Below, one piece after another: positions 3,191-60,041 of a DNA stretch of 64,000 nt. A model generated the notes under the pieces. The model worked only from the letters and a program-made list of their open reading frames with translations. It searched no databases and had not been told where the DNA came from. The stretch spans positions 115,001 through 179,000 of the forward strand of contig CAZXLF010000004.1 in NCBI GenBank assembly GCA_964642015.1, given 5' to 3'. Source of the stretch: an uncultured Planctomycetia bacterium (GTDB lineage Bacteria > Omnitrophota > Gorgyraeia > 2-02-FULL-51-18). The position numbers and the translations under genes were made by a program. The stretch's first letter is position 1. Every line of letters starts with the position of its first letter.

Positions 3191-4705
3191 TTGCCGCATT
3201 TAGGACCTATTTCGTGGATCTTGCTCTCGCCTGCCATCGGCGCATGCATTCTTTTTTTCATTCCCAAAGAAAGAACAGATTGGCTAAAAAAAATATCCGT
3301 CGCTTCGGTTTGCGTTTCTCTTTTCTTCGCGTGCTTTGCGTTTCTAAAATACGATCGTATAGCCGCCGGCTACCAGTTCGTCGATAAGATCGACTGGGTC
3401 AAATCACTCGGTATTTCGTACCACGTCGGCGTCGACGGCATCAATCTCGTTCTTCTGCTGATGACCTCGATCCTGGCATTTACAGGGGTCATTGTCTCCT
3501 GCAACGTCAAAGAGAAACTAAAAGAATATCTGATCTTTTACCTTTTTCTGATCGTAGGTTGTTTTGGGGTCTTGAGCTCGCTGGACATCTTCTTCATGTA
3601 CTTTTTCTACGAAACCGCCGTTGTACCGGTATTTCCGCTGATCGGCGTGTGGGGTTCCGGAAATAAAGAATATGCGACGATGAAACTAACGCTCTATCTT
3701 ACATTAGGAGCTGTTTTTGCACTGTTGGCGCTTTTATCGCTTTATTTTGTGACTGGACTCAATACTTTTGATCTGACCGTCATAGAAAAATCTGTTTCGA
3801 CCCATCCTTTACCGATCGCATTTCAGAAATGGGCATTTCCGATGATCATGGTGGGCTTCGGAGTCATTTTAACGCTTTGGCCTTTTCATACATGGTCGCC
3901 GATGGGTTATGCCGCGGCGCCCACTTCGGTCAGCATGCTGCATGCGGGCGTTCTAAAAAAACTCGGCGCTTATGCGATCATCCGTCTCGGCATCGGACTG
4001 ATGCCTGACGGTGCCAAAATTTGGATGCCTTATGTATCCTGGATCGCCATCATCAATATCGTTTACTGCGGACTTGTTGCGTTCACTCAAAAAGATCTGA
4101 AATTCATATTAGGTTATTCCAGCTGCAGCCATATGGGATATATTTTGCTTGGGCTTTCCTGCATGACCCCTATCGCGTTGAATGGCACGGTGTTCTTCAT
4201 GTTCGCGCACGGTATCATGGCGGCGCTTGGATTCTCTTTAGTAGGATTCATCTATGAGCAAGCTCATACACGCATGATCGATGATTGGGGAGGTTTTGGG
4301 AAAAAGATCCCGTTCATTGCGACTCTCTTCATCATGATGGCTATGGCTTCGGTTGGGCTTCCGGGATTCGCCAATTTTGTCGGTGAGATCATGATCCTTT
4401 TGGGAGCGTGGGACAAATACCGACTGCAAGCGATATTCGCAGTGTTGGGCCTTGTCATCACCGCGGGCTACATGCTTAAAACAGTCAGAGGCTCTATGCA
4501 AGGTCCGCTAAATACACACGGAAATTCTCTGAAAGATGCGTTAGGACTTCAAAAAACTCCTTATCTTTTATTGATAGTTGTTTTAATCCTAGTCGGCTTC
4601 TTTCCGTCAGTAATCCTTAAGCCAATATCTACGGGAACAAAATCTATCATAGACCGGATCCAAAATTCATCCTCAAATGCAGTCAAAGCCGATGAAAATG
4701 TATAG
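3191..4705 (+). CDS. nuoM: NADH-quinone oxidoreductase subunit M
   Basis: 504 aa antiporter-like subunit. Position between L and N. Confidence 0.85.
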   Translation: MPHLGPISWILLSPAIGACILFFIPKERTDWLKKISVASVCVSLFFACFAFLKYDRIAAGYQFVDKIDWVKSLGISYHVGVDGINLVLLLMTSILAFTGVIVSCNVKEKLKEYLIFYLFLIVGCFGVLSSLDIFFMYFFYETAVVPVFPLIGVWGSGNKEYATMKLTLYLTLGAVFALLALLSLYFVTGLNTFDLTVIEKSVSTHPLPIAFQKWAFPMIMVGFGVILTLWPFHTWSPMGYAAAPTSVSMLHAGVLKKLGAYAIIRLGIGLMPDGAKIWMPYVSWIAIINIVYCGLVAFTQKDLKFILGYSSCSHMGYILLGLSCMTPIALNGTVFFMFAHGIMAALGFSLVGFIYEQAHTRMIDDWGGFGKKIPFIATLFIMMAMASVGLPGFANFVGEIMILLGAWDKYRLQAIFAVLGLVITAGYMLKTVRGSMQGPLNTHGNSLKDALGLQKTPYLLLIVVLILVGFFPSVILKPISTGTKSIIDRIQNSSSNAVKADENV

Positions 4706-4743
4706 ATCGATGACAAAATCAAATTCAAACAAGAGACATATCC

Positions 4744-6192
4744 GTGGGATTTAATATTCACTTGTCTATTTTCCAAACCGAAATAGGGCTTACGTTTTTG
4801 GCGCTGGGTTGCCTTGCGCTTGATATTTTCCTAAAAAACAATGAGCGCCGCGGCAAGATCCTTGCGGATGCCGCGATGATCGGTGTGGCAATATTGTTCT
4901 TTAATCTCTGTTTCCAATGGGGAAAATTCGGCTCAAGCTTCAAAGGCTCATTCGTCCAAGATGGCGTGGCCTTTTACTTCAAGATCATATTTCTTTTGGC
5001 GGGTTTTTTCGCTCTTTTCATGGCAAGGGACTACAAAAATCAGCTGAAGCGCGGTTACGGTGAATTCACACTGCTGATCTTATTCAGTCTTATCGGCATG
5101 TCGTTCCTGGCATCAGCAAACGATTTTCTGCTGTTTTTTGTTTCGCTTGAAACGCTCACCGTCTCGCTTTACATCATGACTGCTTACCTTCGAGATAAGA
5201 ATACTTCAATTGAAGCTGGAGTGAAATATCTTATTCTGGGAGCTCTCTCTACTGCGACCTTCCTTTACGGCCTGAGTTTCGTTTATGGTGCTACAACTCA
5301 CACATCTTATTCGGGCATCCAGCAGGCATTATCCCAAGGGAATGTTCCGCCGCGGATCTTTACTTTCGGAGCGATCCTGATCATCTGCTCGCTTGGCTTC
5401 AAGATCGCCGCGGTGCCGTTCCAGCTTTGGGCTCCCGATATTTACGAAGGCGCGCCCACTCCAGTCACGGCGTATCTGGCGATCGGTTCAAAGGCTGCGG
5501 GATTTGCGGCTCTGGTTCGCCTGATGTTCACAGTTTTTTCGCCTCTACCTCCGAAAGATCTAATTTTACTTTTCAGCATTTTATCCGCTTTGACCATCCT
5601 TTACGGGAACTTAGGCGCTATCCCGCAAACAAATATTAAACGTCTATTGGGCTACTCAAGCATTGGCCATGCGGGCTATCTCTTAATAGGTCTCGCTGCG
5701 TTCCATTCATCGGGAGCAGAAGCTTTGCTGTATTATTTGCTCAGTTATCTTTTTAGCACCGGCGGTGCATTCCTGGTCATCCTGGCGTTATCAAATCAAC
5801 TGAAGTCCGATTCGATCTCTGAATTCGCCGGACTTTCGCAAAGATCGCCGCTTTTGGCGGCTGGGATGCTTTTATCTTTGCTATCGCTGGCCGGCGTGCC
5901 GCCTTTATCAGGATTTTTTGCGAAATTCTTCCTTTTATGGGCAGGTATTAAATCAGGCCTTCTGTGGCTTGCTTTAATAGGTGTACTGAACGTCATCACG
6001 TCACTTTACTATTACCTTAAAGTAGTTAAGGTCATGTATATCGACAAACCTACCGACCAAAATCCGATCACGGTCACTTTTGACCAGCGAGTCATGCAGT
6101 ATATTTCGATATTCGGGATACTTCTATTGGGAATTTACCAGGGGCCTTTCGTCCGGCTCGTCGAAGCCGCGGTCAAAAATCTTATCCGTTAG
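4744..6192 (+). CDS. nuoN: NADH-quinone oxidoreductase subunit N (GTG start)
   Basis: 482 aa antiporter-like subunit and last gene of the nuoJKLMN string. Converges on mgtE with a 4-nt overlap. Confidence 0.85.
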   Translation: MGFNIHLSIFQTEIGLTFLALGCLALDIFLKNNERRGKILADAAMIGVAILFFNLCFQWGKFGSSFKGSFVQDGVAFYFKIIFLLAGFFALFMARDYKNQLKRGYGEFTLLILFSLIGMSFLASANDFLLFFVSLETLTVSLYIMTAYLRDKNTSIEAGVKYLILGALSTATFLYGLSFVYGATTHTSYSGIQQALSQGNVPPRIFTFGAILIICSLGFKIAAVPFQLWAPDIYEGAPTPVTAYLAIGSKAAGFAALVRLMFTVFSPLPPKDLILLFSILSALTILYGNLGAIPQTNIKRLLGYSSIGHAGYLLIGLAAFHSSGAEALLYYLLSYLFSTGGAFLVILALSNQLKSDSISEFAGLSQRSPLLAAGMLLSLLSLAGVPPLSGFFAKFFLLWAGIKSGLLWLALIGVLNVITSLYYYLKVVKVMYIDKPTDQNPITVTFDQRVMQYISIFGILLLGIYQGPFVRLVEAAVKNLIR

Positions 6193-16395: not shown

Positions 16396-17103
16396 CTAAA
16401 GCATTTTCCGCAGCTCTTCCTTTTTGAGGATAGAGATCTGATGAGGCCTGATATCAATGAGTTTTTTCCTTTTAAGCTCGTAAAGCTGGCGCGCCACAGT
16501 TTCACGCGCAACGCCTATTCTTTGCGCAAGTTCCTCGCGCGTGAATGGCACAGAAAGAATATTATCAGATTCGGTTTTATTACCATTGGCTGCCTGCAGC
16601 ATATCCAGCAGGAATTTGATCAGTCTCTTTTTGCTATCCTTTAAAGAAACCTCTTCTATCAACTCGCTGAAACATTGAAGGCGGTTCGCGAATAAGTTAT
16701 TCAGTGTATGCGACAGCTTCGCGTTCTCTTGGACCAGCTTTACATAATGATCCCGGGAAAGGAACCAGACATTGCTCGGCTCCAATGCTTCTGCTGAAGA
16801 AAAACAGCTCCAGTTCGTCGATCCGGGGTTGCAGGCGCAGGTATCACCGGGACCCAAGGTTTCCAGAATCTGTTCCCGGCCGGCGGAAGAGGTACGGTAG
16901 ATCTTTACTCTTCCCGACCGAACAAAAAATATGCGCTCGCAGGATTTACCCTCAAAAAAAAGGGATTCGCCCTTTTTAAAGGCCTTTTCATTCAAACAAT
17001 TTTTTACTATTGTGAGCTCTTCTTTGGACAAGCTTTGGAAAAATGGGACATTCTCAACAGCTATTGGCATCATTTGCTTCTTCCGAAAGCAAATATGCCA
17101 CAA
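16396..17103 (-). CDS. Crp/Fnr-family transcriptional regulator
   Basis: cNMP-binding beta-roll (…FFEGKSCERIFFVRSGRVKIY…) plus a C-terminal HTH (RETVARQLYELKRKKLI). The true start is probably the internal MMPIAV. Confidence 0.8.
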   Translation of the reverse strand: MWHICFRKKQMMPIAVENVPFFQSLSKEELTIVKNCLNEKAFKKGESLFFEGKSCERIFFVRSGRVKIYRTSSAGREQILETLGPGDTCACNPGSTNWSCFSSAEALEPSNVWFLSRDHYVKLVQENAKLSHTLNNLFANRLQCFSELIEEVSLKDSKKRLIKFLLDMLQAANGNKTESDNILSVPFTREELAQRIGVARETVARQLYELKRKKLIDIRPHQISILKKEELRKML

Positions 17104-17153: not shown

Positions 17154-17411
17154 TTAACAGGAAATAACACCTGCCCCTATGAGCGATAAACGATTGGGGC
17201 GATAGTTGAGTTCGAAACGGATCTTTCCTTCACGTGCCAACCAACCAATCGCCTGATGCAGAAGTGCCGGATCGTTCACTTGTATCTCTTTGGCCAGATC
17301 TTCCGTTGTTTTGTCACCTTTTTCCAAGGCCTTATAGATCTTCCCCGCTGTTTCTCCAATGGCCAGATATTGTTCCTGCACGCTGAACCCTCCTTTATTG
17401 TCAGAATTCAA
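17154..17411 (-). CDS. small winged-helix protein (DUF2582-like)
   Basis: 85 aa with a helix-turn-helix-like pattern (…TTEDLAKEIQVNDPALLHQAIGWLAREGKI…). Confidence 0.45.
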   Translation of the reverse strand: MNSDNKGGFSVQEQYLAIGETAGKIYKALEKGDKTTEDLAKEIQVNDPALLHQAIGWLAREGKIRFELNYRPNRLSLIGAGVISC

Positions 17412-17485: not shown

Positions 17486-17653
17486 TTACCGATTTCTCAT
17501 TAGCTGCGGAGCATGCTCTCCCATATACCGTGCCCGGATGCTTGCTTTTGCATTAGCAAGGGTTTTTGAACTTCCGACGATCTCCCCTGTGCTTTGCTTC
17601 ATGATCTTATAAGGCCTTTCATCGTGTGGTTTTTTCACGATACGATATGGCAT
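17486..17653 (-). CDS. unannotated 55-aa small ORF translationally coupled to rubrerythrin
   Basis: Manual translation: MPYRIVKKPHDERPYKIMKQSTGEIVGSSKTLANAKASIRARYMGEHAPQLMRNR. The ATG immediately follows the rubrerythrin TAA (TAAATG). Below the 60-aa cutoff of the ORF track. Confidence 0.3.
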   Translation of the reverse strand: MPYRIVKKPHDERPYKIMKQSTGEIVGSSKTLANAKASIRARYMGEHAPQLMRNR

Positions 17654-18286
17654 TTAAGAGATCCTCCGAAATTTATCTCTGGACGACCCGCATGACGGAC
17701 ATTTTTCTTTCGGAAATGAACCAGTCACATAACCGCAAACCGAGCAGACAAAAAAAGCGCGTTTTCCGTCCTTCCATAATTCCAGATCTTTCAACGCCTC
17801 ACTGAACAACAACGCATGCTGGTTCTCGGCGCGCTGCGCATAAGTAAATGTGCGCACCGTGTCCAGCATATTCTCGTCTTTTGCGGTTTGAATGAACTTG
17901 GAATACAGTTTCTGCGCTTCAAAGAATTCGCCGCGACTGGCAGAAGTTAAATTCTCTTGGGTGGATTTTACATCCATCGCAATGCGATATGGTTTTAAAG
18001 TTCCACCGAGTTTTTTGATGATGGACGCATGATTTTTAGCATGCACCAGCTCTCCCATCGCCACCGCTCTAAACAGACTTCCTAACGCCGGATAACCTTC
18101 TTCATCGGCCCTGTTCGCATAGGCCCAATACCGGTCACTGACATTGATCTCATCCGTGTAGGCATAGGTGATATTCTTCAGTGTGTAGAAATTAGGCCCC
18201 TGTGCTAATTGCGCCTTGGCAATGCTGGCAAACATAAGCGCGCCGGCCAATACCGCGAAACTCACCGCTATTTTATTCTTCATCAT
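17654..18286 (-). CDS. rubrerythrin with N-terminal signal peptide (probably periplasmic)
   Basis: Two ExxH diiron motifs (GELVHAKNH; AENQHALLF). C-terminal rubredoxin-like CSVC…CPSC. AGGAGG RBS 7 nt before ATGATG at 18286; the track start at 18310 is probably too far upstream. Signal-like MKNKIAVSFAVLAGALMFASIAKA. Confidence 0.8.
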   Translation of the reverse strand: MMKNKIAVSFAVLAGALMFASIAKAQLAQGPNFYTLKNITYAYTDEINVSDRYWAYANRADEEGYPALGSLFRAVAMGELVHAKNHASIIKKLGGTLKPYRIAMDVKSTQENLTSASRGEFFEAQKLYSKFIQTAKDENMLDTVRTFTYAQRAENQHALLFSEALKDLELWKDGKRAFFVCSVCGYVTGSFPKEKCPSCGSSRDKFRRIS

Positions 18287-18314
18287 GACGTCACCCTCCT
18301 TCCGACGCACAGCC

Positions 18315-18836: not shown

Positions 18837-19310
18837 TCAATGGATCATGACAGCGATATCACCTACAATGGGACTCACGATCTTTTCGTAATCTTTATAA
18901 GCCATCCTCATTGCTTCAGAGTGCGTCCCCGCATTAAAAACGATCGTATTGTTTTCCGCTAACGATAAATCAACAACAACCGGCACTCCGTAAAGCTCTC
19001 CAAATGGAGGCATCGCTCCGGGTTCGCAATCCTGAAATATAGAAACAAACTCTTCTTCCGCCTCCAGCCGGATATCCTCTGTACCAAAAAGATACCTCAC
19101 CTTTAACATATCGATCCGGTGAGTGGCGGGTACTACGGCCATGACGTTCATACCGTCAACGCTTAGCATCACGACCTTCGCTTCTTTTTTTCCTGAAATA
19201 TGTTCCATTTCTGCCGTTGTTTGAGCAGTAAATGCTACCGGATGATCAACCAGATCATACGGCATCCGCTTTTCAACTAACATGCTTTCCAATTTTTGCC
19301 TGACGTTCAT
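18837..19310 (-). CDS. YbaK/ProX-like aminoacyl-tRNA deacylase domain protein
   Basis: 157 aa. YbaK-like fold pattern (…HPVAFTAQTTAEMEHISGKKEAKVVMLSVDG…NAGTHSEAMRM…). Confidence 0.55.
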   Translation of the reverse strand: MNVRQKLESMLVEKRMPYDLVDHPVAFTAQTTAEMEHISGKKEAKVVMLSVDGMNVMAVVPATHRIDMLKVRYLFGTEDIRLEAEEEFVSIFQDCEPGAMPPFGELYGVPVVVDLSLAENNTIVFNAGTHSEAMRMAYKDYEKIVSPIVGDIAVMIH

Positions 19311-19344: not shown

Positions 19345-19755
19345 TCACGCAGCCCCTAAACTCTGATAACGTTCATTTCTTGCCCGTTCTTCAAGCGCCT
19401 CATCCACTTCTTCAATCGCCTCAAGCACCAGCGGCAAATAACGATCCAATCCGCAATTAAGCGTATCACGCAGCTCACAGACATCATTCTTTTTCTGCGA
19501 ACGGCAAGACATGCAAATATTTTCGCGGACCGCTTTATTATATGATTCGATTTTCGGATCGTTGAGACGCTGGGCGAGGATCACAAGCTGAGGCAGATAA
19601 CGAAGAAGGGCACATCCGTTCGGATCTTTAGTATGACACACACCATCAGCGCCCATATCCATACACTTGCCGCATACATGACGCTTTACCGCTTCTTCAA
19701 ACTCGACTTTGTTCCAGAAGAAGTAATTATTCCGATTTTCGCTCATCGAAATCAC
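19345..19755 (-). CDS. hypothetical Cys-rich protein with internal duplication (two CxxC-x8-C-x8-C…RYLP modules)
   Basis: 136 aa. Module 1 CGKCMDMGADGVCHTKDPNGCALLRYLP. Module 2 CMSCRSQKKNDVCELRDTLNCGLDRYLP. I recognise no family. Confidence 0.5.
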   Translation of the reverse strand: MISMSENRNNYFFWNKVEFEEAVKRHVCGKCMDMGADGVCHTKDPNGCALLRYLPQLVILAQRLNDPKIESYNKAVRENICMSCRSQKKNDVCELRDTLNCGLDRYLPLVLEAIEEVDEALEERARNERYQSLGAA

Positions 19756-19810
19756 CCCCCTTGCTAGGGTTTTCTTCTTCTTTCACTTATAATATACAAC
19801 GGTCAAAAAA

Positions 19811-19838
19811 ATCATCTGTGACATATGTCACAGATGAT
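19811..19838. promoter_or_regulatory. perfect 28-bp palindrome containing a consensus CRP-type site TGTGA-N6-TCACA
   Basis: ATCATCTGTGACATATGTCACAGATGAT. Core TGTGA at 19817-19821 and TCACA at 19828-19832. Centred ~70 nt upstream of the Cys-rich gene start, in the dps to Cys-rich intergenic region. Confidence 0.55.
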
Positions 19839-19907: not shown

Positions 19908-20381
19908 CTATTCTAATGTGGCCCTTAACATCCACGCCATTTTTTCATGTTTCTCCATTAAGCCCGTCAAAAAATCACTTGTACCTGCGTCGCCATATTT
20001 TTCGTTACAGGTCACAAGGTCCTCACGTAGGATATTGATGATCTCCTCATGGTCTTCAAGCAGCTTTAAAACCATCGCCTTTGAACTCGGATAATCCTTC
20101 GGAAATTCTTTGAGTCTCGCACACTTCAAGAACTCACCCATTGTTCCGATCGATCTTCCCCCTAACGCTCTTACTCTCTCGGCTGTATCATCGATAATAT
20201 CATTGAGCTCTTCGTACTGCGACTCAAAGAATTTATGAAGATCATGGAAATTGGGTCCGACGACATTCCAGTGGTAATTCCGCGTCTTGGCGTACAATAC
20301 ATACTCATCCGCCAAAAGCTGGTTCAGAATGTCGGCGGACCCTTCACGTTTCTTATCGGGAATTCCTATATCAGTTCTCAT
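19908..20381 (-). CDS. dps: Dps (DNA protection during starvation) ferritin-like protein
   Basis: 157 aa. LLADEYVLYAKTRNYHWNVVGPNFHDLHKFFESQYEEL is the Dps ferroxidase-site region. Confidence 0.85.
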   Translation of the reverse strand: MRTDIGIPDKKREGSADILNQLLADEYVLYAKTRNYHWNVVGPNFHDLHKFFESQYEELNDIIDDTAERVRALGGRSIGTMGEFLKCARLKEFPKDYPSSKAMVLKLLEDHEEIINILREDLVTCNEKYGDAGTSDFLTGLMEKHEKMAWMLRATLE

Positions 20382-20936: not shown

Positions 20937-20952
20937 CTGTGACAAGCGTCAC
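20937..20952. promoter_or_regulatory. CRP-type half-palindromic site TGTGA-N6-TCACT upstream of hsp20
   Basis: TGTGACAAGCGTCACT, centred ~76 nt upstream of the Hsp20 start. Same spacing as the site at 19811-19838. Confidence 0.4.
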
Positions 20953-20967
20953 TAAAAAACGAATTTT

Positions 20968-26462: not shown

Positions 26463-28097
26463 CTATTTGTTCAAAGTTTTAGCGATCACAGCTGCAAATG
26501 TTGATATCGCATACGGTTTAGTAAGATAAGCAAGTGCCCCGTCGTGCATGAGATCCTCGCTAGTTCCCTCGGAAGTATAACCGCTGGACACAACAATCTT
26601 CGCATTCGGATTCACTTCTAAAATTTTTCTCAAGGTTTCACGGCCGGTCAATTTCGGCATCGTCATATCAAGAACCACCAAACGGATCTTTTGGTAGTTA
26701 TCTTTATAAACCCGCACCGCCTCCATTCCGTCTTTAGCCATGATAACTTGGTAACCTAATTTTTCCAAAAAAAGGCGCCCGACATTGCGCACATTCTCCT
26801 CGTCATCAGCAAAAAGGATCAACCCTTCTCCGCGCGGCAAAGCGGATGTTTCTTGACTGGGCCGTTGCTCCACCTTAGCGTCTGGTTTAGCCGGCAAATA
26901 GATAGTAAATACGCTGCCTTTGTCTACTTCGCTGGCCACATCGATCCAACCTTTGTGAGCGGTCACAATATTCAGCGCCATGGCCAGACCCAATCCGCTG
27001 CCGCCTTCCTTTCTCTTCGTGGTATAAAACGGCTCGAAAATATGCGGGAGAACATCCGGAAGGATTCCGCTCCCCGTATCTTGCACGCGTATAAAAATGT
27101 AATGATTTGAATGAGAGTGGTGCTGAAGTTGCTCCGCGGTCAACTGAGCATTGCCGGCCTCGATCAAAAGCTGCCCGCCGGTAGATAACATCGCATCCTT
27201 GGCGTTTGTCACCAGATTCATCAGCACCGTCTCTATTTCGCCTTCATTGCCATAGACGGGCCATAAGTCGTCATCGATGTAAACAGCCATCTCTATGGTC
27301 TTTGGCAACACCGTCTGAAAAAGGGTCCGGGTCTCATTAAGGATATTCTGAAGCTTGATCATCGATTTTTGATGGGATGACGGCCGGCTGACATCCTTGA
27401 TCTTCTTGACGATATCGACACAACGTTGCGCAGCCTGTTGCGCTTCCACCAATATATCTATATCCACCTCCTGCGAATTATCTTTATGCTCTCTGATAAA
27501 AATATCCAAATAGCCCAGAACAGGTGTCATCTGATTGTTCAGATCATGGGCAATACCTCCCGCGAGGGTCCCGATAAGTTCCATTTTTTGCGCCTGCAAA
27601 AGCTGCGCTTCCAACTTCTTCTTTTCCGTGATATCCAGCTTGATACCGAGCAAGCTCAACACTTTACCTTCACCGCTCAAAATCGGAACGATCGTGGCAG
27701 ATTCCCAGTAGAAGGTCCCGTTTTTATGCTTATTGTGAAATTCTCCGCGCCATTCGCGGCCGTTCAAAACCGTATCCCACAACTCCTGGAATATGGCCTG
27801 CGGCATTTCTCCTGATTTTAAAATACGGGGATTTTTGCCAAGCACCTCTACTGCGGAATAACCGCTGACCTCCTCAAAATTCTTGTTAACAAATTGAATG
27901 TTCCCTTTGGGATCCGTGATCATAATGCTTGCCGGTGTCTGCTCAACGGCCGTGGACAAACGCTGTAATTCGTTTTCCGTCGCTTTGTGTTCCGCTGTGC
28001 GCCGAGAAAGTTGGGCCCGTAAAATGATGGTCCATGCTGTTAGCAAAACCAAAATGGCCGCAAAAACCAAGCAGATGACCCAAAAGAAAGCGCTCAT
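26463..28097 (-). CDS. hybrid sensor histidine kinase (TM, PAS, HisKA, HATPase, C-terminal receiver)
   Basis: H-box AHDLNNQMTPVLGY. G-box GSGLGLAMALNIV. C-terminal receiver ILFADDEENV…VLDMTMP. Confidence 0.85.
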   Translation of the reverse strand: MSAFFWVICLVFAAILVLLTAWTIILRAQLSRRTAEHKATENELQRLSTAVEQTPASIMITDPKGNIQFVNKNFEEVSGYSAVEVLGKNPRILKSGEMPQAIFQELWDTVLNGREWRGEFHNKHKNGTFYWESATIVPILSGEGKVLSLLGIKLDITEKKKLEAQLLQAQKMELIGTLAGGIAHDLNNQMTPVLGYLDIFIREHKDNSQEVDIDILVEAQQAAQRCVDIVKKIKDVSRPSSHQKSMIKLQNILNETRTLFQTVLPKTIEMAVYIDDDLWPVYGNEGEIETVLMNLVTNAKDAMLSTGGQLLIEAGNAQLTAEQLQHHSHSNHYIFIRVQDTGSGILPDVLPHIFEPFYTTKRKEGGSGLGLAMALNIVTAHKGWIDVASEVDKGSVFTIYLPAKPDAKVEQRPSQETSALPRGEGLILFADDEENVRNVGRLFLEKLGYQVIMAKDGMEAVRVYKDNYQKIRLVVLDMTMPKLTGRETLRKILEVNPNAKIVVSSGYTSEGTSEDLMHDGALAYLTKPYAISTFAAVIAKTLNK

Positions 28098-48209: not shown

Positions 48210-48962
48210 TCAATAGACTTTTGCAGGTATTGACGCATAGGATTGAAGTTGATCGGCAATATGTTGCAATTTATCTTTACCGACAGGCAAGATACCCTGC
48301 TCTTGAGTGGTACGATCAACCGTATAAATTTGCACTTTTATGGGACGGATAAAGGATATGGCCTCGATCCAATTTTTTATATCGCGTTCGCTAATATTTT
48401 TAATATTACCAGTAACGAACATACTTTGTATAGTCGTATCTTGCAAGTCACGCAGACCGACAAGCATGCTGTCCCAATCAAGTTTCGCGATCGGGCGGTT
48501 AATATATTGACATAGGTAACGGTTGCCTGCATCCAATTTCATAAAGCGTCCATCCAGCTTCGAAAGTGCGATGTGGATCTCTTTTTTCTGGCATGTCGAG
48601 GAATTGGAAAGAATGCCGAGCGGCTTGTTTGGAAAAAAGAGGTTCCGCAATGTCGTCAAACCATCTACGATTTCCGGAAATTGAGGATGAAGCGTCGGTT
48701 CTCCGTTGCCGGACAGCATAAGCCAATCTATTTCTGTGCCCATATCTCTGATCCTCTCAAAATCCGATGAAAGCTGAGCGTAAATATCACCAAAACCGGG
48801 GAAATGCTCGTTACCGATACCGGCTGTGTACTGACAATAAATGCAATCAAATGAGCAGGTCCGCCGATCTATAGGCAAGATATTGATGCCGAGAGATTTA
48901 CCAAATCGCCTTGAGTCCACAGGACCGTAAACCATACGAGATTGAAGTTGTACCGTCTTCAT
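48210..48962 (-). CDS. radical SAM protein (COG0731-like)
   Basis: N-terminal YGPVDSRRFGKSLGINILP followed by the CxxxCxxC cluster CSFDCIYCQ. Confidence 0.7.
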   Translation of the reverse strand: MKTVQLQSRMVYGPVDSRRFGKSLGINILPIDRRTCSFDCIYCQYTAGIGNEHFPGFGDIYAQLSSDFERIRDMGTEIDWLMLSGNGEPTLHPQFPEIVDGLTTLRNLFFPNKPLGILSNSSTCQKKEIHIALSKLDGRFMKLDAGNRYLCQYINRPIAKLDWDSMLVGLRDLQDTTIQSMFVTGNIKNISERDIKNWIEAISFIRPIKVQIYTVDRTTQEQGILPVGKDKLQHIADQLQSYASIPAKVY

Positions 48963-49465
48963 TTGCTAGCCTTTTTGACGCACTCGATTAGCTGTTTTTT
49001 TTCATCGGGGCGCAATTCATCCTCAGCGATCCGGTAAAGAACTTGGGTCTCCACTTGCATATGGCCCCTAAGAAAGCAAATAAGATAGGTGAACTGTTCG
49101 TTGATCTTGTAGATCAGAAATGCCCTGTCCGCGGCAGGTTTTTGAGCTTTCGACAAAGAGGATTTTAATTTGTTCATGCTGTCCCTGAAATCGCTATGTT
49201 CGGAATTCAAAAGGCCGATCATCGGCTTTAGCTTCGGAATATGCCGTGCTAAGAAAGGGAACAATATCTTCTCCTCTTCTATCATGTGGCTTTCAAAATC
49301 TTTTTTAAAATTCGACACGAACTCTTGAGCATGTTTCAAATTCTTACTCAGATTTTGTTTGCCTTCAAAGCGGAGTTTTTCAAGAACGCTGTAGAATTGA
49401 TTCAGATCACGCGCGGTTTGCCTATGATCCCGTTCGAACATCTCAGAAAGGCTTCTAGTTGACAT
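48959..49465 (-). CDS. hemerythrin-like (HHE cation-binding) domain protein
   Basis: Spaced H/HxxxE motifs (ERDHRQ; HMIEEE; SEHSDF; HMQVE). Confidence 0.5.
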   Translation of the reverse strand: MSTRSLSEMFERDHRQTARDLNQFYSVLEKLRFEGKQNLSKNLKHAQEFVSNFKKDFESHMIEEEKILFPFLARHIPKLKPMIGLLNSEHSDFRDSMNKLKSSLSKAQKPAADRAFLIYKINEQFTYLICFLRGHMQVETQVLYRIAEDELRPDEKKQLIECVKKASK

Positions 49466-49557
49466 AGTTTACACCCCTTCTTTCTGAAATAAATTAAACT
49501 ATATAACGCCATAATAATCTGTGATGTCCGTCACTGATATTGGAAAACCATAAAAAT

Positions 49558-51290: not shown

Positions 51291-52775
51291 TTATGCGCCG
51301 CTATGACAATCCGAGCAGTTTGTCTCATTCCACCCTTCGATTTCTACAGGATGTTTAAAATCAAGTCCATTTATATTTTTTTCTATGGATCCCTTTGGTC
51401 CTTGCTCTATGATCAGATGGCATGCTTTGCAGTCTTTTGTGATCGTTGCTCCTTGAACAGTTTTATGTTCTCCATCGTGGCATCGAAAACATCCCGGTGT
51501 GTAAAGATGCCCGATATTTTCAGGATGCGTGTCCCACCGAACTTTCATTTCGGGGAACATGTTATTTTGGAACATCACTTTGACGGCTTCCGCCGCTTTT
51601 TCTATCGCATCTTTGTGAGCCGCATAAAAATCCGGCATTTTTTCTTTATAATAATTTTCTAATGAGTTCTTTATCGTGTCAAGCGCTTCATCAGTCGATT
51701 TATATTCCTTCGAAAGAACCTCCATGCCTTTTTCCCTGATCTTCGGGATCAACGCATCAATATCCCCTCTTTGCATCGCCTCATCCATCAAGCGGTAAGG
51801 AGGTTCAAAGCGGTGTGTCGGACGATTATGGCAGTCAATACAATCCATTTTCCTTACCAATGACGCTGGGGGCTCAGTGTCTTTATACTTGGAGCTCGAA
51901 GTTGTATATATTGTCTCTTTTCCGTCTTTATCTACTGTTTTTATCCAGCTTATCTTCTGTCTTTTTTCATCATCGGCTACATAGTAGAGGTCTTGATCGA
52001 TATTCATATGAGCGTGGACACCGCGGGTCTGTCCGTGACCTGCGCCCACATTCATCAGCATGCGCAGATGCCATTCCGAGTTTTTATTGTCAGATAAAAA
52101 ATATGTGCGGTTAAAGTCCATCGTACTGAAAAGTTTTCCGGGCCAGTGGCATTGTTTGCACGTTTCTTCGGCAGGCCGCAGATCCTTAACCGGAGTTTGT
52201 ACCGGTTTTTTATAAGTATTGGACAAATATTTGATCACCTGACGCGCGCCGGAGATCTTAGAATGCACATACCAGTCCGCTCCGGCACCGATATGGCATT
52301 CGACGCATTTAACGCGGCCATGCGGTGAATTTTTATAAGTTGTGAATTCCGGTGTCATAACCCCATGACATAAGACACCGCAAAACTGGACGGATTCCGT
52401 ATAGTGGAAGGCTTTATAAGCGCCGATCACTGACATCAATATTAAAAGTGAAGTGCCTGTAATAAAAACAAGTAGCATGTTTCGATGCTGCGAAATAGAA
52501 AGATCGATACGGAACCTTTGGAGCTCTATGACCGGAAGGCCCTTTGCGATACGGTTCTTCTTCCAGAAATAGCCGATAGGGATCAACAAAAGCCCCAAAA
52601 TCAAGAACGCCGGCAGGATCAGGTAAGTGATCAGTCCTAGATATAAATTCTTGCCATGATCAAAGAAATCCAGCGCAAAAAGGAAAACTTCTATCGAAGC
52701 GACGGTAATGCTGATCATCACGCCGAGGTAGGTGATCACATTGTAAAACAAAGATGAGAATTTTTTGTCGCTCAA
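51291..52775 (-). CDS. membrane-anchored multiheme c-type cytochrome (7 haem motifs; NapC/NirT-related, ImcH/CymA-like)
   Basis: 2-3 N-terminal TM helices, then an atypical CGVLCH (CX3CH) and six CxxCH motifs (CVECH, CKQCH, CIDCH, CFRCH, CKACH, CSDCH). 494 aa. Confidence 0.7.
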   Translation of the reverse strand: MSDKKFSSLFYNVITYLGVMISITVASIEVFLFALDFFDHGKNLYLGLITYLILPAFLILGLLLIPIGYFWKKNRIAKGLPVIELQRFRIDLSISQHRNMLLVFITGTSLLILMSVIGAYKAFHYTESVQFCGVLCHGVMTPEFTTYKNSPHGRVKCVECHIGAGADWYVHSKISGARQVIKYLSNTYKKPVQTPVKDLRPAEETCKQCHWPGKLFSTMDFNRTYFLSDNKNSEWHLRMLMNVGAGHGQTRGVHAHMNIDQDLYYVADDEKRQKISWIKTVDKDGKETIYTTSSSKYKDTEPPASLVRKMDCIDCHNRPTHRFEPPYRLMDEAMQRGDIDALIPKIREKGMEVLSKEYKSTDEALDTIKNSLENYYKEKMPDFYAAHKDAIEKAAEAVKVMFQNNMFPEMKVRWDTHPENIGHLYTPGCFRCHDGEHKTVQGATITKDCKACHLIIEQGPKGSIEKNINGLDFKHPVEIEGWNETNCSDCHSGA

Positions 52776-52868
52776 TGCGTTATCCTTCTTTGATCACAAA
52801 TAAAAAAGCGCCGGATATCCGATCCAACGCTTTTTCATCAAGTGTTTCGGCCTTTAAACCGGCAACGA

Positions 52869-53147
52869 TCATCCGGCCGCCGGGGCTTTCCCTGCCGCTT
52901 TGTATGTTTCGGTATCGGGTGTTTCTTTTATCTTTCTGACTTTTTGCCCGTATTCATTCCAGTCATGCTTACCATCATCTTTCTTTGGAATTTTGTCAAC
53001 ATGGCAAGCGGTGCATTTGGGTTTTTCTTCATCGGGAAACGCCGCCTTGTAGATCTTGGCCTGTTCAAGATTGGCTAACGCAATTCCCGTTGAGCAGAAA
53101 CCCACGATGACCAGTGCAATGGTCTTTGTTAATTTTTTCATACGCAT
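52869..53147 (-). CDS. periplasmic monohaem cytochrome c (MtoD-like by position)
   Basis: 92 aa. Signal peptide. Single CTACH. Confidence 0.65.
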   Translation of the reverse strand: MRMKKLTKTIALVIVGFCSTGIALANLEQAKIYKAAFPDEEKPKCTACHVDKIPKKDDGKHDWNEYGQKVRKIKETPDTETYKAAGKAPAAG

Positions 53148-53181
53148 ATTTCTCCAAGTTAGTTATATGCCACAAATACCG

Positions 53182-55293
53182 TCAGCCCCAATTGATCTTT
53201 GCTTCAAGCCAAAACGTATGGGCGTTGTAACTGCCTATTTCAGCCTCATTGGCGCTGTACTGATACCATGAATATTTCGGCTCGAGCGACAGATCTTTGT
53301 TCAGCTTCCAGGAACAGCCTAACGTTAGATCCACCTGATGAAAATCAGCGCCATAGGGCATTCCAATGATACTAAAATCTTGAAAGTTAGCCGCGCGAAT
53401 ATAATCCGCAGTGCCGGTCAGGATAATATCCTTTGTCAAAGCATACTCGGCACTGAACAGCGTGGTATAAGAGTCGAAATTAAATGTCGGGATAGCTGAC
53501 GCCAGACCCGTGGAACGATCAGGAGTAATGATCTTTCCGTCTTGAAAAGAAAATGATGCCGTCAGCAAAAGATCGTCCACCGGCTGGCTTGATAAATCCC
53601 AAGTATATATATTTGAAATAAGTGCCGTACCTACACTCACATCGTCATTGGGCAGACCCCACGCGGTGTACCGCTTATCCTGGAGCTGATAGCGAAAAGT
53701 TGGCTGAAACCAGCGGACAGGTTTCCAGCTGACGCGAGTTTCAAATTCATCCGTCGCCGTGGACTGTTTATCAATAAATGTAAGCGAAGTATCGCCACCG
53801 TTATTGAATAGATGATTGTAATGAATATCATCCAGTTTATGACGGACTTGAGCCGTTAATGTAACGTGATTCAATGGAAAAATCTGCGCGCCAAGCGTGC
53901 CGGAACCCCTGTACATATGGTCAAGTTCCTGGCGGTTTAAAGTGGTAGCTGCACTGGCACTTGTCAGGTTCATATAAAGGTCGTCCCTGACTTGTTGAAA
54001 ATCATAATCGTTATAAATGGAAACATGCGGAATCCCGCCATAGCGAAACGATACGCTTTCACCATAGCTCATCCTCTTGTCCTGGTTGTTGGCCACATCG
54101 ATCTGATCAATGGATCCGTCCGGCACCGCAGGAGAAATATCCTGAGGCGTTGTAGATTCGCTTCGGCGGTTGATAGCTTCGACCTTAAACCTTGTAATGG
54201 CCGTTATCGGGTTAAGCAATGTCGTCATGAAACTCATCACGCCTGTTTGCGATATGTAATGATTATCCGCAAACGCATTCACCCACTGCTTTGGATTGGC
54301 AAAATTATGGAGCACTCCATTGCCTGTCAACTCATTCAAATTATCCAATTCATGGCTATCGACCTGCGAAAAACGATAGTCGCCGGACACATAGATTTTC
54401 TCTTTCCAAAACCACCGGTTCACACCCAAGAGTGTGGTAAGCAAATCCGTGCGCGGAGACTGATACAGGTCGCGGATCTTGGCATTCGCGTCAGGTGAGC
54501 CGGACACCACTGTATCAAGTTGTTTTTCTTCGCGCATATCATTAGCACGCGTAAATTCCCATCTTTGCTCCGCATTCCAATTAAAACCGGCGACCGTGTC
54601 ATCCAGCTTAGCGCCAAATGAATCAGTTATTTCGTCGATCTGCTGCCACGAGGGAGCGATCTTTCTAACCGTCGATGCGCCAACCCCCGGCGCATTATCG
54701 GTTACACTCGCCCACGATAAGCGCGACTTTGTACCCTCCTTAAAATCACGCTCATAGTCTAACGTGATATCAGGCATATTTTTGATTGAAAGCCCTGCCT
54801 CGACGCCGAACTTTCCAATATTAAGCGCCAATTCTTTATCTGTGTAATTTTGCGCAAGATTAACAAAAGGCCGATATAATCCGCCTGCGTTGCTGTAATA
54901 TTTACGAAACTCGCTATAATCAAAATTAAGATATGCGATGTCATCCTTTTTAAAATGGGCCGATCCGCTGTAATCTCCGTCTTCGGGTATGACATGGCCT
55001 TCTGATTCCAGCGATACATCATTTGAAAATTCCTTATTCAGCTTAAAATCTTTTACACCAAACGCAAAACCGTCATCCATCCAGTGAAGTGCACGGAACT
55101 TGCTCGAATCCCCATCGATAAAAGTGTATCGAGCAGGATCGGCCGTAAGAGAAAAATCTATAGGGTCGGTCTTCGTCTCGGCCGAGTCGCCGGCTAGCAA
55201 AGAATTGGACAATGATAACATCAACAAAAAACCGGACGACACTGCGATAAAATTTTTATAATCCATTTTGCGCATGAATAGCTCCTTAATCAA
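53182..55293 (-). CDS. large outer-membrane beta-barrel protein (MtrB/MtoB/PioB-like porin candidate)
   Basis: 703 aa. Signal peptide. Alternating hydrophobic/polar beta-strand pattern throughout, rich in Tyr/Asn/Asp/Gly. Overlaps the upstream cytochrome gene by 4 nt. Confidence 0.55.
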   Translation of the reverse strand: MIKELFMRKMDYKNFIAVSSGFLLMLSLSNSLLAGDSAETKTDPIDFSLTADPARYTFIDGDSSKFRALHWMDDGFAFGVKDFKLNKEFSNDVSLESEGHVIPEDGDYSGSAHFKKDDIAYLNFDYSEFRKYYSNAGGLYRPFVNLAQNYTDKELALNIGKFGVEAGLSIKNMPDITLDYERDFKEGTKSRLSWASVTDNAPGVGASTVRKIAPSWQQIDEITDSFGAKLDDTVAGFNWNAEQRWEFTRANDMREEKQLDTVVSGSPDANAKIRDLYQSPRTDLLTTLLGVNRWFWKEKIYVSGDYRFSQVDSHELDNLNELTGNGVLHNFANPKQWVNAFADNHYISQTGVMSFMTTLLNPITAITRFKVEAINRRSESTTPQDISPAVPDGSIDQIDVANNQDKRMSYGESVSFRYGGIPHVSIYNDYDFQQVRDDLYMNLTSASAATTLNRQELDHMYRGSGTLGAQIFPLNHVTLTAQVRHKLDDIHYNHLFNNGGDTSLTFIDKQSTATDEFETRVSWKPVRWFQPTFRYQLQDKRYTAWGLPNDDVSVGTALISNIYTWDLSSQPVDDLLLTASFSFQDGKIITPDRSTGLASAIPTFNFDSYTTLFSAEYALTKDIILTGTADYIRAANFQDFSIIGMPYGADFHQVDLTLGCSWKLNKDLSLEPKYSWYQYSANEAEIGSYNAHTFWLEAKINWG

Positions 55294-56114
55294 TATCGGA
55301 GTTTATCGCTAAAATTTGAACCATGCACCGCCGTATGGCATCCTGCGCTCCAACAGGTGCCTTCACTCCATTGGCCTGTCGCGGCGCCTCCGCCGTGATT
55401 ATGCGCGCCGATGATCGGGACATTCAGTTCAGTGTGGCAACGCAAACAAAGGTTATGATCGCGTGCGATCAGCATCTTTTCATGGATCGAGCCATGGACT
55501 TTATGGCAAGTCTGGCATCCTTCGCGCAACGCTTCATGTTCCCACGCAAACGGGCCCCGCTTGTCCTTATGGCACTTGAAACAGGCTTCATTGACATCGC
55601 GCATCGTCGTCGCAGACCAAGGTCTGACTTCTTCTCCATGCGGGGAATGGCAATCTGCGCAACTCATTTTGCCTTCAAGCACCGGATGATGATACGGCAA
55701 ACGGAATTCCATTTTTTTATCGGTATGACAAGCAAAACAAGCGGAAGGATCCTTCTTCGGATTGATAATATTTCCTCGCCCGCCGCCCGCATCGACGTGA
55801 ATGCTCGCCGGGCCGTGGCACATTTCACAATCTTTCACGTCGCCATCTTTGACGCTGATCCGGGCATGCGTAGACAAACGAAATTCCTTCTCTTCTTTCT
55901 CGTGGCACGACGCGCAGGTATCCGAACCGACATATTTAGCCCCTTTAAAAGCCAAAAGTTTTGCTAACGAGCCCTCATTGTTATCCACATTGACAACATT
56001 TTTATCCTCTGCCTGAACTGCGCCGGAAACAAAAAATAGAATGATAACTAAGGCAAAAAATTTGGCCGGCTTTTTAATGCGAAAAAAATTTGAAAAATCC
56101 TTTTGTTTTATCAT
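55290..56114 (-). CDS. periplasmic multihaem c-type cytochrome (7 CxxCH plus 1 possible CX4CH; MtrA/MtoA/OmaB-like)
   Basis: 274 aa. Signal peptide. CASCH, CEMCH, CFACH, CADCH, CFKCH, CQTCH, CLRCH and a terminal CWSAGCH. Very high haem density, about one per 34 aa. Confidence 0.8.
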   Translation of the reverse strand: MIKQKDFSNFFRIKKPAKFFALVIILFFVSGAVQAEDKNVVNVDNNEGSLAKLLAFKGAKYVGSDTCASCHEKEEKEFRLSTHARISVKDGDVKDCEMCHGPASIHVDAGGGRGNIINPKKDPSACFACHTDKKMEFRLPYHHPVLEGKMSCADCHSPHGEEVRPWSATTMRDVNEACFKCHKDKRGPFAWEHEALREGCQTCHKVHGSIHEKMLIARDHNLCLRCHTELNVPIIGAHNHGGGAATGQWSEGTCWSAGCHTAVHGSNFSDKLRY

Positions 56115-56230: not shown

Positions 56231-56278
56231 TTTTAGACTAGCAAATAGTCTAAGAGCAGTCTGTGACAAATGTCACTT
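56231..56278. promoter_or_regulatory. 8-bp inverted repeat (TTAGACTA-N5-TAGTCTAA) next to a CRP-type site TGTGA-N6-TCACT in the cytochrome/ccsBA divergent region
   Basis: TTTTAGACTAGCAAATAGTCTAAGAGCAGTCTGTGACAAATGTCACTTAA. The CRP-like core is at 56263-56278. Confidence 0.4.
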
Positions 56279-58221: not shown

Positions 58222-59820
58222 ATGGCGCCTCACAAGAACGAATTAGTAAGAAGCATTCTCTTTGGTGCCGTATTATTCTCGCTGATCCTATTCGGCTCTA
58301 AACCCTCTCTTAAAGACCCGTCACTCGGCATCGCAATCCAGCACAACGGGCAAGTAAAATCTTTTGACGCCTTTTGTCGAGAGACAGTTCAAACTATCAC
58401 AGGGAAACAAAAATGGGATCATCGTTCTCCGGAATCCGCGGTTTTTCGGGTCCTGCGGGATAACAATGCGGCCGGTGATCTTAAATGGATCCGCATTGAT
58501 CTGCCTGAACTCATTTCTAAAATTGGTCTTGTACAAGGTCAGGTCTTTTATTCCTACAACCAGGTCATCCCATCTATCGGCGAGGTACAATGGCTCGTTC
58601 AAGAGGCGCGAAATAAACGCGACAAAGACTTGAGGCCTACGAAATTGGAGCAAGCGGCGGAAACTCTTTATGGAAAACTTTCAATAGCAAAAGACCTGAT
58701 GAGCGGCGATTCTATCAACGTCATCCCTCCGAAAGAAGGCAAGGTCTGGTCTTCTCCGTATGCCAGCGAAGGTTCGCGAAGCGACGAATTCAGAAAACTC
58801 GTGTCATTGTCAGCTCCGGGAAAAGAAAATGACTTTCGAGAAGGCTGCAAAAAATGGATCGAACAGACGAACCATGATACGGCGTCGGCATTCCGAGCTA
58901 AGATCAAGCGGGAACTCATTTATTTTAGCCTTCGCCCTTTTCAATGGGCATGGATCCTTTATTTAGTATCCTTCATCTTCCTTTCTTTTTTTAAAAAAAA
59001 GAACTTTGGCATTTTAATCGGTTTAGCCAGTGTTTTTTGCGCGTTCGCTCTCCATACTGACGGACTCATTCTAAGGGTACTCATTCTCGGACGACCGCCT
59101 GTTTCAAATATGTACGAATCCATGATCTACATGAGCTGGGTCGTTATGGCCGTCGCGGTCATCTTTTCTTTGACCAACAAAAATCTCGTTTTCATATCGT
59201 CTGCTTCGATGATCAGCGCTCTAGTCGTCATCTATGGAAATCTTTTGCCGTTGGATCCCAGTCTGGAAGTATTAGTGCCTGTTTTACGCAGCAATTATTG
59301 GCTTACGATCCATGTTCTGACGATCGTTTCAAGTTACGGCGTGTTCGGAGTCGCAATGGCGCTAGGCCATCGGCATCTGATCCTCTCCATGTTAGGCAAA
59401 CTGCCCAAATCTGCGGAACAAACTTCCGCTCAGCTTATTTACCGCGTGATCCAACTGGGCGTACTTTTGATCGGCATCGGCACCACGCTCGGAGGCGTCT
59501 GGGCCAATGAATCCTGGGGAAGATTCTGGGGCTGGGATCCCAAGGAAACCTGGGCTCTGATCACGCTCTTAGGTTACTTAGTGGTGATTCATCTAAAATA
59601 TTCTAAACTGATTTCAAATTTCTGGCTTGCGATGAGCGCAGTGCTCGGATTCTTACTGGTGCTTATGACATGGTACGGCGTGAATTTTGTGCTCGGACGA
59701 GGACTTCACAGCTACGGATTCGGCTCAGGCGGGATCGTTTGGATATTTTATTATCTCGGTTTTGAATTTATCTTCGTCACAGCTGTATTTTACAGAAATT
59801 TTTCGCATAAAAATGCTTAA
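58222..59820 (+). CDS. ccsA: system II cytochrome c biogenesis protein CcsA/ResC with a long N-terminal periplasmic extension
   Basis: Trp-rich haem-handling motif WGRFWGWDPKETWA with conserved His residues. 532 aa. The first ~230 aa form an extra domain. Confidence 0.85.
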   Translation: MAPHKNELVRSILFGAVLFSLILFGSKPSLKDPSLGIAIQHNGQVKSFDAFCRETVQTITGKQKWDHRSPESAVFRVLRDNNAAGDLKWIRIDLPELISKIGLVQGQVFYSYNQVIPSIGEVQWLVQEARNKRDKDLRPTKLEQAAETLYGKLSIAKDLMSGDSINVIPPKEGKVWSSPYASEGSRSDEFRKLVSLSAPGKENDFREGCKKWIEQTNHDTASAFRAKIKRELIYFSLRPFQWAWILYLVSFIFLSFFKKKNFGILIGLASVFCAFALHTDGLILRVLILGRPPVSNMYESMIYMSWVVMAVAVIFSLTNKNLVFISSASMISALVVIYGNLLPLDPSLEVLVPVLRSNYWLTIHVLTIVSSYGVFGVAMALGHRHLILSMLGKLPKSAEQTSAQLIYRVIQLGVLLIGIGTTLGGVWANESWGRFWGWDPKETWALITLLGYLVVIHLKYSKLISNFWLAMSAVLGFLLVLMTWYGVNFVLGRGLHSYGFGSGGIVWIFYYLGFEFIFVTAVFYRNFSHKNA

Positions 59821-60041
59821 TCCGTCTGGCGGTTCAGAATATCGATAAGTTCCTGCACAAGAACAGCGTGGCGTTTCTCGTCCGACACCAACTTTTCCAA
59901 TTGATGCTGAACTTCATGATTTTCATGATTTTTCTTGCATTCCTCCAACAAAGCCGTGTATGAGTCGACGCTCTTTACTTCGAGATCGAGCATTTTTTTG
60001 AACCGGATAGCCCAGAGTTCTTTGTAAAATTTCCTTTCCAT
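59817..60041 (-). CDS. hypothetical small helical protein with ExxH motif (downstream member of a coupled pair)
   Basis: 74 aa. …LEKLVSDEKRHAVLVQELI…. 1-nt stop/start overlap with the upstream 74-aa ORF. Confidence 0.4.
   Translation of the reverse strand: MERKFYKELWAIRFKKMLDLEVKSVDSYTALLEECKKNHENHEVQHQLEKLVSDEKRHAVLVQELIDILNRQTD

Follow-up and report, generated by a model that had tools for sequence, protein, structure and literature searches.

An unnamed family of eight-cysteine proteins with a duplicated four-Cys module, its predicted CRP/FNR-family regulon and its genomic links to hemerythrin-type proteins

The 64,000-nt stretch of DNA analysed here (the window) encodes on its minus strand, at 19345..19746 (stop codon included), a protein with eight Cys in two tandem modules which belongs to a widespread family that has no name, no Pfam model, no NCBIfam model and no solved structural relative. 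From the genes that lie beside its homologues or are fused to them, we propose that this eight-Cys protein may act as an iron/Fe-S electron-transfer or iron-handling partner of hemerythrin/RIC-like, Fe-S and haem enzymes, a reading to which we assign a probability of about 0.4. Each module would bind a single redox-active iron centre, which could be an Fe-S cluster or an Fe(Cys)4 site of the rubredoxin type, and the protein would shuttle electrons or iron to hemerythrin/RIC-type di-iron proteins, while also serving cytochrome b-anchored or radical-SAM enzymes; it would then stand to hemerythrin as the rubredoxin domain stands to rubrerythrin. Small Cys-rich metalloproteins are a known kind, and those of the Cys4 type are familiar from stress regulons. 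The present protein adds a defined member to the stress regulon of poorly known uncultured bacteria, and its genomic links are unusually coherent, comprising a conserved activator site, translational coupling or fusion to hemerythrin/RIC domains and operons that hold cytochrome, Rieske and radical-SAM genes.

The enclosing ORF in the ORF list spans 19345..19755 on the minus strand, and an earlier note on this DNA had counted 136 aa from its upstream GTG. The likely start is instead the ATG at 19746, which gives a 133-aa product with the N-terminus MSENRNN. Since this ATG is preceded at 6 nt by a ribosome-binding site read off the sequence (AAGGGGGGTG, 19753..19762, minus strand) and homologues begin at the same Met, we take the protein to be 133 aa long. 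The coding sequence is further supported by an identical protein in the public collection (P0001) and by 16 homologues. The product has a mass of 15 kDa, is acidic and carries no signal peptide, and is therefore probably cytoplasmic. That the ORF or its Cys pattern arose by chance, with no functional gene behind it, is a reading for which we found no supporting point and whose probability is close to nil: length, motifs and Cys are kept in 17 close relatives and in over 400 distant cluster representatives, the ribosome-binding site is strong and the structure prediction is confident. The homologue data rule this reading out, and the gene is real.

As the earlier note had placed it, the gene is flanked by a Dps/ferritin-like gene (19908..20381) and a YbaK-type tRNA_edit gene (18837..19310). 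Its window neighbours are YbaK-like, DUF488 and rubrerythrin genes, and hemerythrin is not adjacent to it here. The rubrerythrin gene (17654..18310, minus strand) belongs to the same putative operon, and its product carries at its N-terminus a hydrophobic stretch that resembles a signal peptide (MKNKIAVSFAVLAGALMFASIAKAQ), which would be unusual in a protein that is normally cytoplasmic. Between this rubrerythrin gene and a CRP/FNR-family regulator gene lie a 55-aa ORF without a family (17486..17653, minus strand) and a DUF2582 winged-helix gene (17154..17411, minus strand).

The protein is built from two tandem modules of ~52 residues, each composed of a helix, a four-Cys loop and a second helix. 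Module 1 (residues 13-64; 19555..19710, minus strand) runs from its first helix through the loop C25-x2-C28-x8-C37-x7-C45 and an RYLP motif into the next helix, and module 2 (residues 65-117; 19396..19554, minus strand) does so through C78-x2-C81-x8-C90-x7-C98 and DRYLP into a long C-terminal helix. The internal duplication that the earlier note had pointed out, and of which both quoted peptides are present, lies far beyond chance: residues 13-64 matched residues 65-117 with an E-value of 2e-9 and 35% identity over 37 ungapped residues (BLASTP), and family profiles of the two halves aligned over 51 columns with a probability of 99.4% and an E-value of 2.7e-21 (hhalign). The unit common to both is approximately Y-x2-A-(I/V)-R-x2-(V/I)-C-x2-C-x6-G-x-C-x7-C-x-L-x-R-Y-L-P-x-(V/I)-V. 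The spacing given previously, CxxC-x8-C-x8-C, was correct as far as CxxC-x8-C, but the last interval is x7 and not x8 in both halves.

Conservation of the eight Cys, which the earlier note had also proposed, was borne out in the homologues. All eight are retained in 238 of 254 full-length relatives, with rare losses at C25, C37 and C78, and each Cys is 94-100% conserved among 153 divergent representatives; exactly eight Cys are present in 173 of 242 members. The 17 close relatives show little or no variation in the eight Cys, RxLP, DRYLPLV, Y69 and R93. We infer that the four Cys of each module bind one metal centre, with which both the Cys conservation and the compact Cys loop of the structural model are consistent.

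A word-indexed search of 5.8 billion proteins returned the 17 close relatives, whilst a profile search of 1.84 billion cluster representatives returned 432 clusters at E <= 1e-3, 215 of them at E <= 1e-10. At 50% identity the family thus falls into at least 432 clusters. All of them come from uncultured bacteria, and every relative is named 'hypothetical protein' at its source; the few that carry a taxonomic label come from metagenome-assembled genomes of Omnitrophota, Bacteroidota and Vicinamibacteria. Members are 100-140 aa long with a median pI of 5.0, and no N-terminal hydrophobic stretch was seen in them. Large, confidently predicted and marked by eight near-invariant Cys, the family would merit a new domain entry. 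Elsewhere in the window, 26463..28097 (minus strand) encodes a PAS/histidine kinase/receiver hybrid sensor whose closest relative among the 5.8 billion proteins is only 45% identical, so that the genome comes from a poorly sampled lineage.

The earlier statement that the protein could not be placed in a known family held up against every search made. Scanning the 133-aa protein with Pfam-A and NCBIfam gave no family above its curated cut-off, and comparison of 118 relatives with Pfam one by one gave isolated one-member matches, none of which recurred. Neither the protein nor the family profile found anything better than E 0.2 in sequence searches of the PDB. AlphaFold2 gave a pLDDT of 80.5 with a 17-sequence alignment, and of 91.3, with a pTM of 0.83, when 118 sequences were used; a fold search of the PDB with the latter model found no relative. 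In that model a helix ends at the CxxC of each module and is followed by a loop of ~20 residues that includes a small hairpin bearing the third Cys, the fourth Cys lies just ahead of the next helix, and module 2 leads into the long C-terminal helix.

No ferredoxin, rubredoxin or other Fe-S signature was detectable by Pfam in the query or the 118 relatives. The Fer4 motif CxxCxxCxxxCP is missing from the sequence and Fer4 matched none of the 118 members; rubredoxin gave no Pfam match either, each module having a single CxxC and two further Cys that stand alone. Two-cluster ferredoxins (2 x CxxCxxCxxxCP) nevertheless resemble the eight-Cys protein in being small, acidic and duplicated with four Cys per repeat, and both are encoded beside oxidoreductases and radical SAM enzymes; they differ in Cys spacing and in their beta-alpha-beta fold, as against the all-helical fold predicted here. 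YgbA (a family with NO-stimulated promoters), DksA-type, zinc-ribbon, WhiB-like and CHCH-type proteins were rejected on both spacing and profiles. The sole literature return for the Cys spacing was the plant B-box, C-X2-C-X8-C-X7-C-X2-C-X4-H-X8-H, whose first four Cys are spaced identically to those of each module. Its remaining ligands (C-X2-C-X4-H-X8-H) are absent here, Pfam gave no match, and the kingdom and the predicted fold are different, and we rejected kinship as a coincidence of spacing.

A Cys4 arrangement of such spacing could, however, equally hold structural zinc, which weakens the case for an iron centre. On that account the protein would be a structural or redox-switch zinc protein with one Zn(Cys)4 site per module, acting as an adaptor or, like Hsp33 or RsrA, as a thiol-based redox switch; attack on the thiolates by oxidants or NO would release or activate it. 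The spacing shared with the first half of the B-box zinc finger, scattered weak matches of single members to PHD/FYVE-type zinc fingers, the adjoining hsp20 and Usp stress genes and the lack of a detectable Fe-S signature all speak for zinc, whereas the zinc-finger matches are isolated (one member each of the 118) and below threshold, and placement in electron-transfer operons together with replacement of ScdA_N (see below) is more easily explained by a redox cofactor. We regard zinc as possible, although we lean against it; it is the main rival, ahead of the sensor and cytochrome-helper readings considered below.

The preference for a redox-active iron partner is drawn from the genes around the homologues, of which we examined 27 non-redundant loci with DNA and two gene lists without DNA, set against the 432 clusters of the family; the related loci found numbered four from the genome collection and 26 from the metagenome collection. 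Among homologues of at least 45% identity, the order crp - hemerythrin - homologue occurs in L005, L023, L026 and L040, with L024 truncated, and in five loci the hemerythrin and homologue genes overlap or are separated by at most 6 nt. L001 and L016 carry a longer operon, crp - hemerythrin - Aq_1264_TM - multihaem cytochrome - ~690-aa unknown - monohaem c - homologue, with a GGDEF gene after it; L001 has nrfHA as well. Further arrangements are found in L015 and L018 (homologue - Aq_1264_TM - multihaem cytochrome - unknown), in L032 (cytochrome b - homologue - ccsA) and in L004, where resB/ccsA is divergent from the homologue. Stress-related neighbours are found in L021, L027 and the window (hsp20 - homologue - ybaK) and in L028 (Usp - homologue). 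The homologue is followed by a radical SAM gene in L030, P0188 and P0192; in L030, which reads DUF488 - homologue - radical SAM, the latter is the orthologue of window 48210..48962. Taken across loci, these arrangements indicate that the same gene set has been reshuffled between genomes, and in the window this set is split over three promoters that carry the same regulatory site.

More distant members are arranged differently. Those of 36-40% identity in L011, L034 and L035 lie between Rieske and cytochrome b genes (Pfam), in a bc-type operon that also encodes a GltD-like flavoprotein and an eight-haem cytochrome, and in L012 and L036 the homologue follows genes for a 2-oxoacid:ferredoxin oxidoreductase, called from translations rather than by family search, and precedes a radical SAM/SPASM gene. 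The GltD-like FAD/Fe-S subunit on the Bacteroidota-type contigs (L011 206..3998, L034, and L035 383..3889) is 634 aa long. In two other loci, L013 and L014, the order is homologue - multihaem cytochrome - Ni_hydr_CYTB. The hemerythrin adjacency at five loci, the operons of L001 and L016, the fusions P0134 and P0124 described below and the Rieske/cytochrome b, multihaem, radical SAM and oxidoreductase neighbours are together the basis on which we favour an iron/Fe-S partner.

Within the window, the hemerythrin (HHE) gene that corresponds to these arrangements lies at 48959..49465 (minus strand); it is the orthologue of the hemerythrin gene abutting the homologue in other genomes, and its product is weakly RIC-like (TIGR03652, E 3.5e-11). 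The radical SAM gene in this hemerythrin operon (48210..48962, minus strand) encodes 250 aa without a specific family, and in L030 its orthologue (4209..5024) is directly downstream of the eight-Cys gene. A Paired_CXXCH multihaem cytochrome and a ~690-703-aa protein without a Pfam or NCBIfam family form a conserved module of their own (window 51291..56114, minus strand; L001 2171..5565; L018 6419..9845; L009 14578..16348). It is preceded elsewhere by Aq_1264_TM and is followed in the window by a 494-aa NapC/NirT-like cytochrome, and it carries the same regulator site; the pair may represent an undescribed respiratory or detoxifying complex.

The same neighbourhoods could be read as pointing to a cytochrome accessory or maturation factor, that is, a cytoplasmic Cys-rich helper for haem delivery or for assembly of b- or c-type cytochromes. 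ResB/CcsA genes do neighbour the homologue in L004, L032, P0188 and P0192 and belong to the window regulon, multihaem cytochromes and cytochrome b are nearby, and a nearby pair of radical SAM and amine-oxidase genes could relate to haem synthesis. Many loci, however, contain only hemerythrin, hsp20 or ybaK beside the homologue and no cytochrome. System II maturation, moreover, takes place on the periplasmic side and, to our knowledge, needs no such factor in characterised organisms. We consider this role improbable.

Coupling to a di-iron domain is also seen in fusion proteins: in two of them, P0134 and P0124, a hemerythrin domain follows the eight-Cys domain at the C-terminus. Residues 114-284 of P0134 align with positions 55-216 of the RIC model TIGR03652 (216 positions) with an E-value of 2.5e-44, and the protein falls below the full-length cut-off of that model because positions 1-54, corresponding to ScdA_N, are missing. 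RIC proteins combine ScdA_N, four helices with a conserved DfCCgG motif, with a di-iron four-helix bundle, and they have been proposed to donate iron to Fe-S assembly and to act in nitrite or NO chemistry (PMC9268430). In P0134 the eight-Cys domain stands where ScdA_N would be. It shares neither sequence nor fold likeness with ScdA_N, having no CC pair and instead eight Cys in two repeats, and no CC dipeptide or PF04405 match was found in the window protein. By these profile and motif comparisons, the eight-Cys domain of P0134 occupies the ScdA_N position and is not homologous to ScdA_N.

A clearly RIC-type domain was found in P0134 only, the adjacently encoded hemerythrins giving weak or no RIC scores. 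The likeness to RIC/YtfE/ScdA extends beyond that fusion in that the eight-Cys protein is encoded beside, or fused ahead of, a hemerythrin-type di-iron domain, and in that the genes for RIC and for the eight-Cys protein both belong to stress regulons controlled by regulators of the redox or NO type (PMC9268430). Activity of ScdA, whose kinetics were measured with an artificial electron donor, is raised by its N-terminal domain (PMC12412097). The electron or iron supply of RIC is still debated, and a dedicated partner domain would make the question testable; we regard the replacement of ScdA_N in an RIC protein as the most interesting lead. Rubrerythrin, in which a di-iron four-helix bundle is joined to a rubredoxin-like Fe(Cys)4 site, follows the same logic of a Cys4 module coupled to a di-iron bundle, and shares the oxidative-stress context, with one rubrerythrin (17654..18310) encoded in the putative operon of the eight-Cys gene itself. 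Its rubredoxin domain (PF21349) has two CxxC knuckles in a small beta fold, whereas the eight-Cys module has the spacing CxxC-x8-C-x7-C, is predicted to be helical, is duplicated and is usually a separate polypeptide.

Some of the other fusions also fit a sensor. P0029 has a Usp domain at its N-terminus, P0023 a winged helix that weakly resembles MarR/FeoC and scores below the Pfam cut-off, P0161 an N-terminal region without a Pfam match that is possibly receiver-like, and P0044 a zf-FCS/YHS-like N-terminus; the winged helix of P0023 also shows a weak likeness to the DUF2582 protein of the window (BLASTP E 0.001). If the Usp, winged-helix and receiver-like fusions are taken as the guide, the eight-Cys protein would be a stand-alone sensor whose Cys centres detect NO, O2 or redox state and modulate a CRP/FNR, Usp or GGDEF partner, carrying no electrons, and the frequent position of the homologue as first gene of its operon and the recurrence of GGDEF and CRP genes nearby would agree with this. 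Each regulatory fusion is a single case, however, with the helix-turn-helix match below the Pfam cut-off; the protein itself is acidic and without a DNA-binding domain, and a place between the Rieske and cytochrome b genes is what one expects of a subunit, not of a sensor. A sensor of this kind is in our judgement unlikely.

The iron/Fe-S partner reading can also be put in a more specific form, namely that the family is a new all-helical two-centre iron/Fe-S carrier which would be the physiological redox partner of RIC-type/hemerythrin di-iron proteins, would replace ScdA_N in some of them and, as a cytoplasmic subunit, would also pass electrons into or out of the cytochrome b/multihaem and Rieske/cytochrome b complexes of uncultured anaerobes. 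In this full form we hold the proposal to be doubtful.

Evidence of a different kind comes from the promoter. The earlier note had reported a perfect CRP-type palindrome there, and such a site, TGTGACATATGTCACA, is indeed present at 19817..19832, 71 nt 5' of the ATG, with the core GTGAC-N4-GTCAC, which recurs at other promoters. Allowing one mismatch, TGTGA-N6-TCACA occurs six times in the window against 1.55 expected, and the core seven times against 0.72 expected, a count reached in none of 100 shuffles. Promoter regions hold four of the seven core matches: besides the eight-Cys gene, these are a site (TGTGACAAGCGTCACT, 20938..20953) 5' of hsp20-dps, a site with one mismatch to the core (49520..49535) 5' of the hemerythrin-radical SAM-GGDEF operon, and a site (56262..56277) between the divergent multihaem cytochrome/703-aa operon and the resB-ccsA pair. 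In at least ten related loci the core is likewise found 5' of the homologue or of its operon (L001, L016, L015, L018, L005, L023, L026, L040, L021 and L027).

The position of the site is also constrained. On the minus strand of the eight-Cys gene, -10-like hexamers (TATATT/TATTAT, 19789..19796) start 20 and 22 nt past the site, and in 15 of 17 promoters, with the crp promoters left out, a TAnnnT begins 21-22 nt 3' of the 16-bp site, for which the background of 3.7% per position gives a binomial tail of 2e-12. This spacing would centre the site ~41.5 bp 5' of the inferred transcription start. A centre near -41.5, with the site replacing the -35 element, is the geometry of class II activation by CRP/FNR proteins; no sigma-70 -35/-10 pair was found on the strand of the eight-Cys gene, which also fits. 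The palindrome thus has the recurrence and the placement of a real promoter element of the class II activated kind, and the shared sites define a predicted conserved regulon that comprises the eight-Cys gene, hsp20-dps, the hemerythrin-radical SAM-GGDEF operon, multihaem cytochromes and ResB/CcsA.

The cognate regulator is most plausibly the CRP/FNR-family protein encoded 2.3 kb downstream (16396..17070, minus strand; cNMP_binding and HTH_Crp_2 by Pfam). Its identity to the regulators at the start of the crp-hemerythrin-homologue operons of other metagenomes is 62-68%, and it has the recognition helix RETVAR in common with the regulators of these orthologous operons. R and E in the recognition helix (R180/E181) correlate with TGTGA-type sites (PMC1274295), so that the RE...R helix of this protein fits the TGTGA site, and by this rule, together with the sequence identity, we identify it as the predicted regulator of the regulon. 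Its sensor domain has four conserved Cys, C44 and those in GDTCACNPGSxxWSC, and relatives with the same four Cys in a cNMP-binding-type domain are encoded at L001 938..1609 and L005 4758..5387. The arrangement differs from the canonical FNR Cys motif, which is N-terminal, and these Cys may bind an Fe-S cluster or form a thiol switch.

The closest described counterpart is the HcpR type of regulon found in anaerobes (Rodionov et al., 2005; PMC1274295), with the site wTGTGAnnnnnnTCACAw and, as here, R and E in the helix. Predicted HcpR-type regulons often hold genes for ferredoxin-, hemerythrin- and cytochrome c-like proteins and nrfHA (PMC1274295), a content which resembles that of the eight-Cys regulon. 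By comparison with HcpR-type regulators, the four conserved Cys of the window regulator sit elsewhere, in the sensor domain, and no hcp gene was found among the annotated genes of the window or the related loci. Site, class II spacing and nearby regulator are in combination consistent with the regulon of a CRP/FNR-family activator that is HcpR-like. Nitrosative or oxidative stress, sensed by the regulator, would be the inducing signal of the regulon, as is suggested by Dps, Hsp20, rubrerythrin and hemerythrin, by nrfHA in relatives and by the HcpR-like gene content.

The palindrome of the eight-Cys promoter extends to 28 perfect bp (19811-19838), and in the minus-strand RNA it would fold into a 14-bp hairpin (-20.8 kcal/mol; z -5.0) with U7 behind it, 70 nt past the dps stop codon; this hairpin, visible on folding, was absent from the list of the standard terminator scan. 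From its folding we infer that the palindrome with its U7 (19804..19838, minus strand) doubles as a probable intrinsic terminator of hsp20-dps overlapping the regulator site. A terminator alone was considered and rejected, as other promoters have the core with neither a hairpin nor a U-run, and the -10 spacing is fixed. The two functions are carried by separate elements in L021, a terminator for hsp20 and a regulator site ahead of the homologue, for which reason we read the window palindrome as a regulator site that serves as a terminator besides.

Two further features accompany the crp genes. At their own promoters a -10-like hexamer lies 6-14 nt past the site (L001 893-908, L016 752-767, L005 4632-4647 and L026 4674-4689) rather than 21-22 nt, and this short spacing suggests autorepression of crp beside class II activation of the target genes. 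Divergent from the crp operon in several genomes, and beside a Kinase-PPPase gene, are two adjacent genes of ~75-96 aa with ExxH-type motifs (window 59817..60265, minus strand; L001 320..837; L005 4082..4583), whose products match Ferritin_2 weakly and look like a split ferritin-like di-iron protein.
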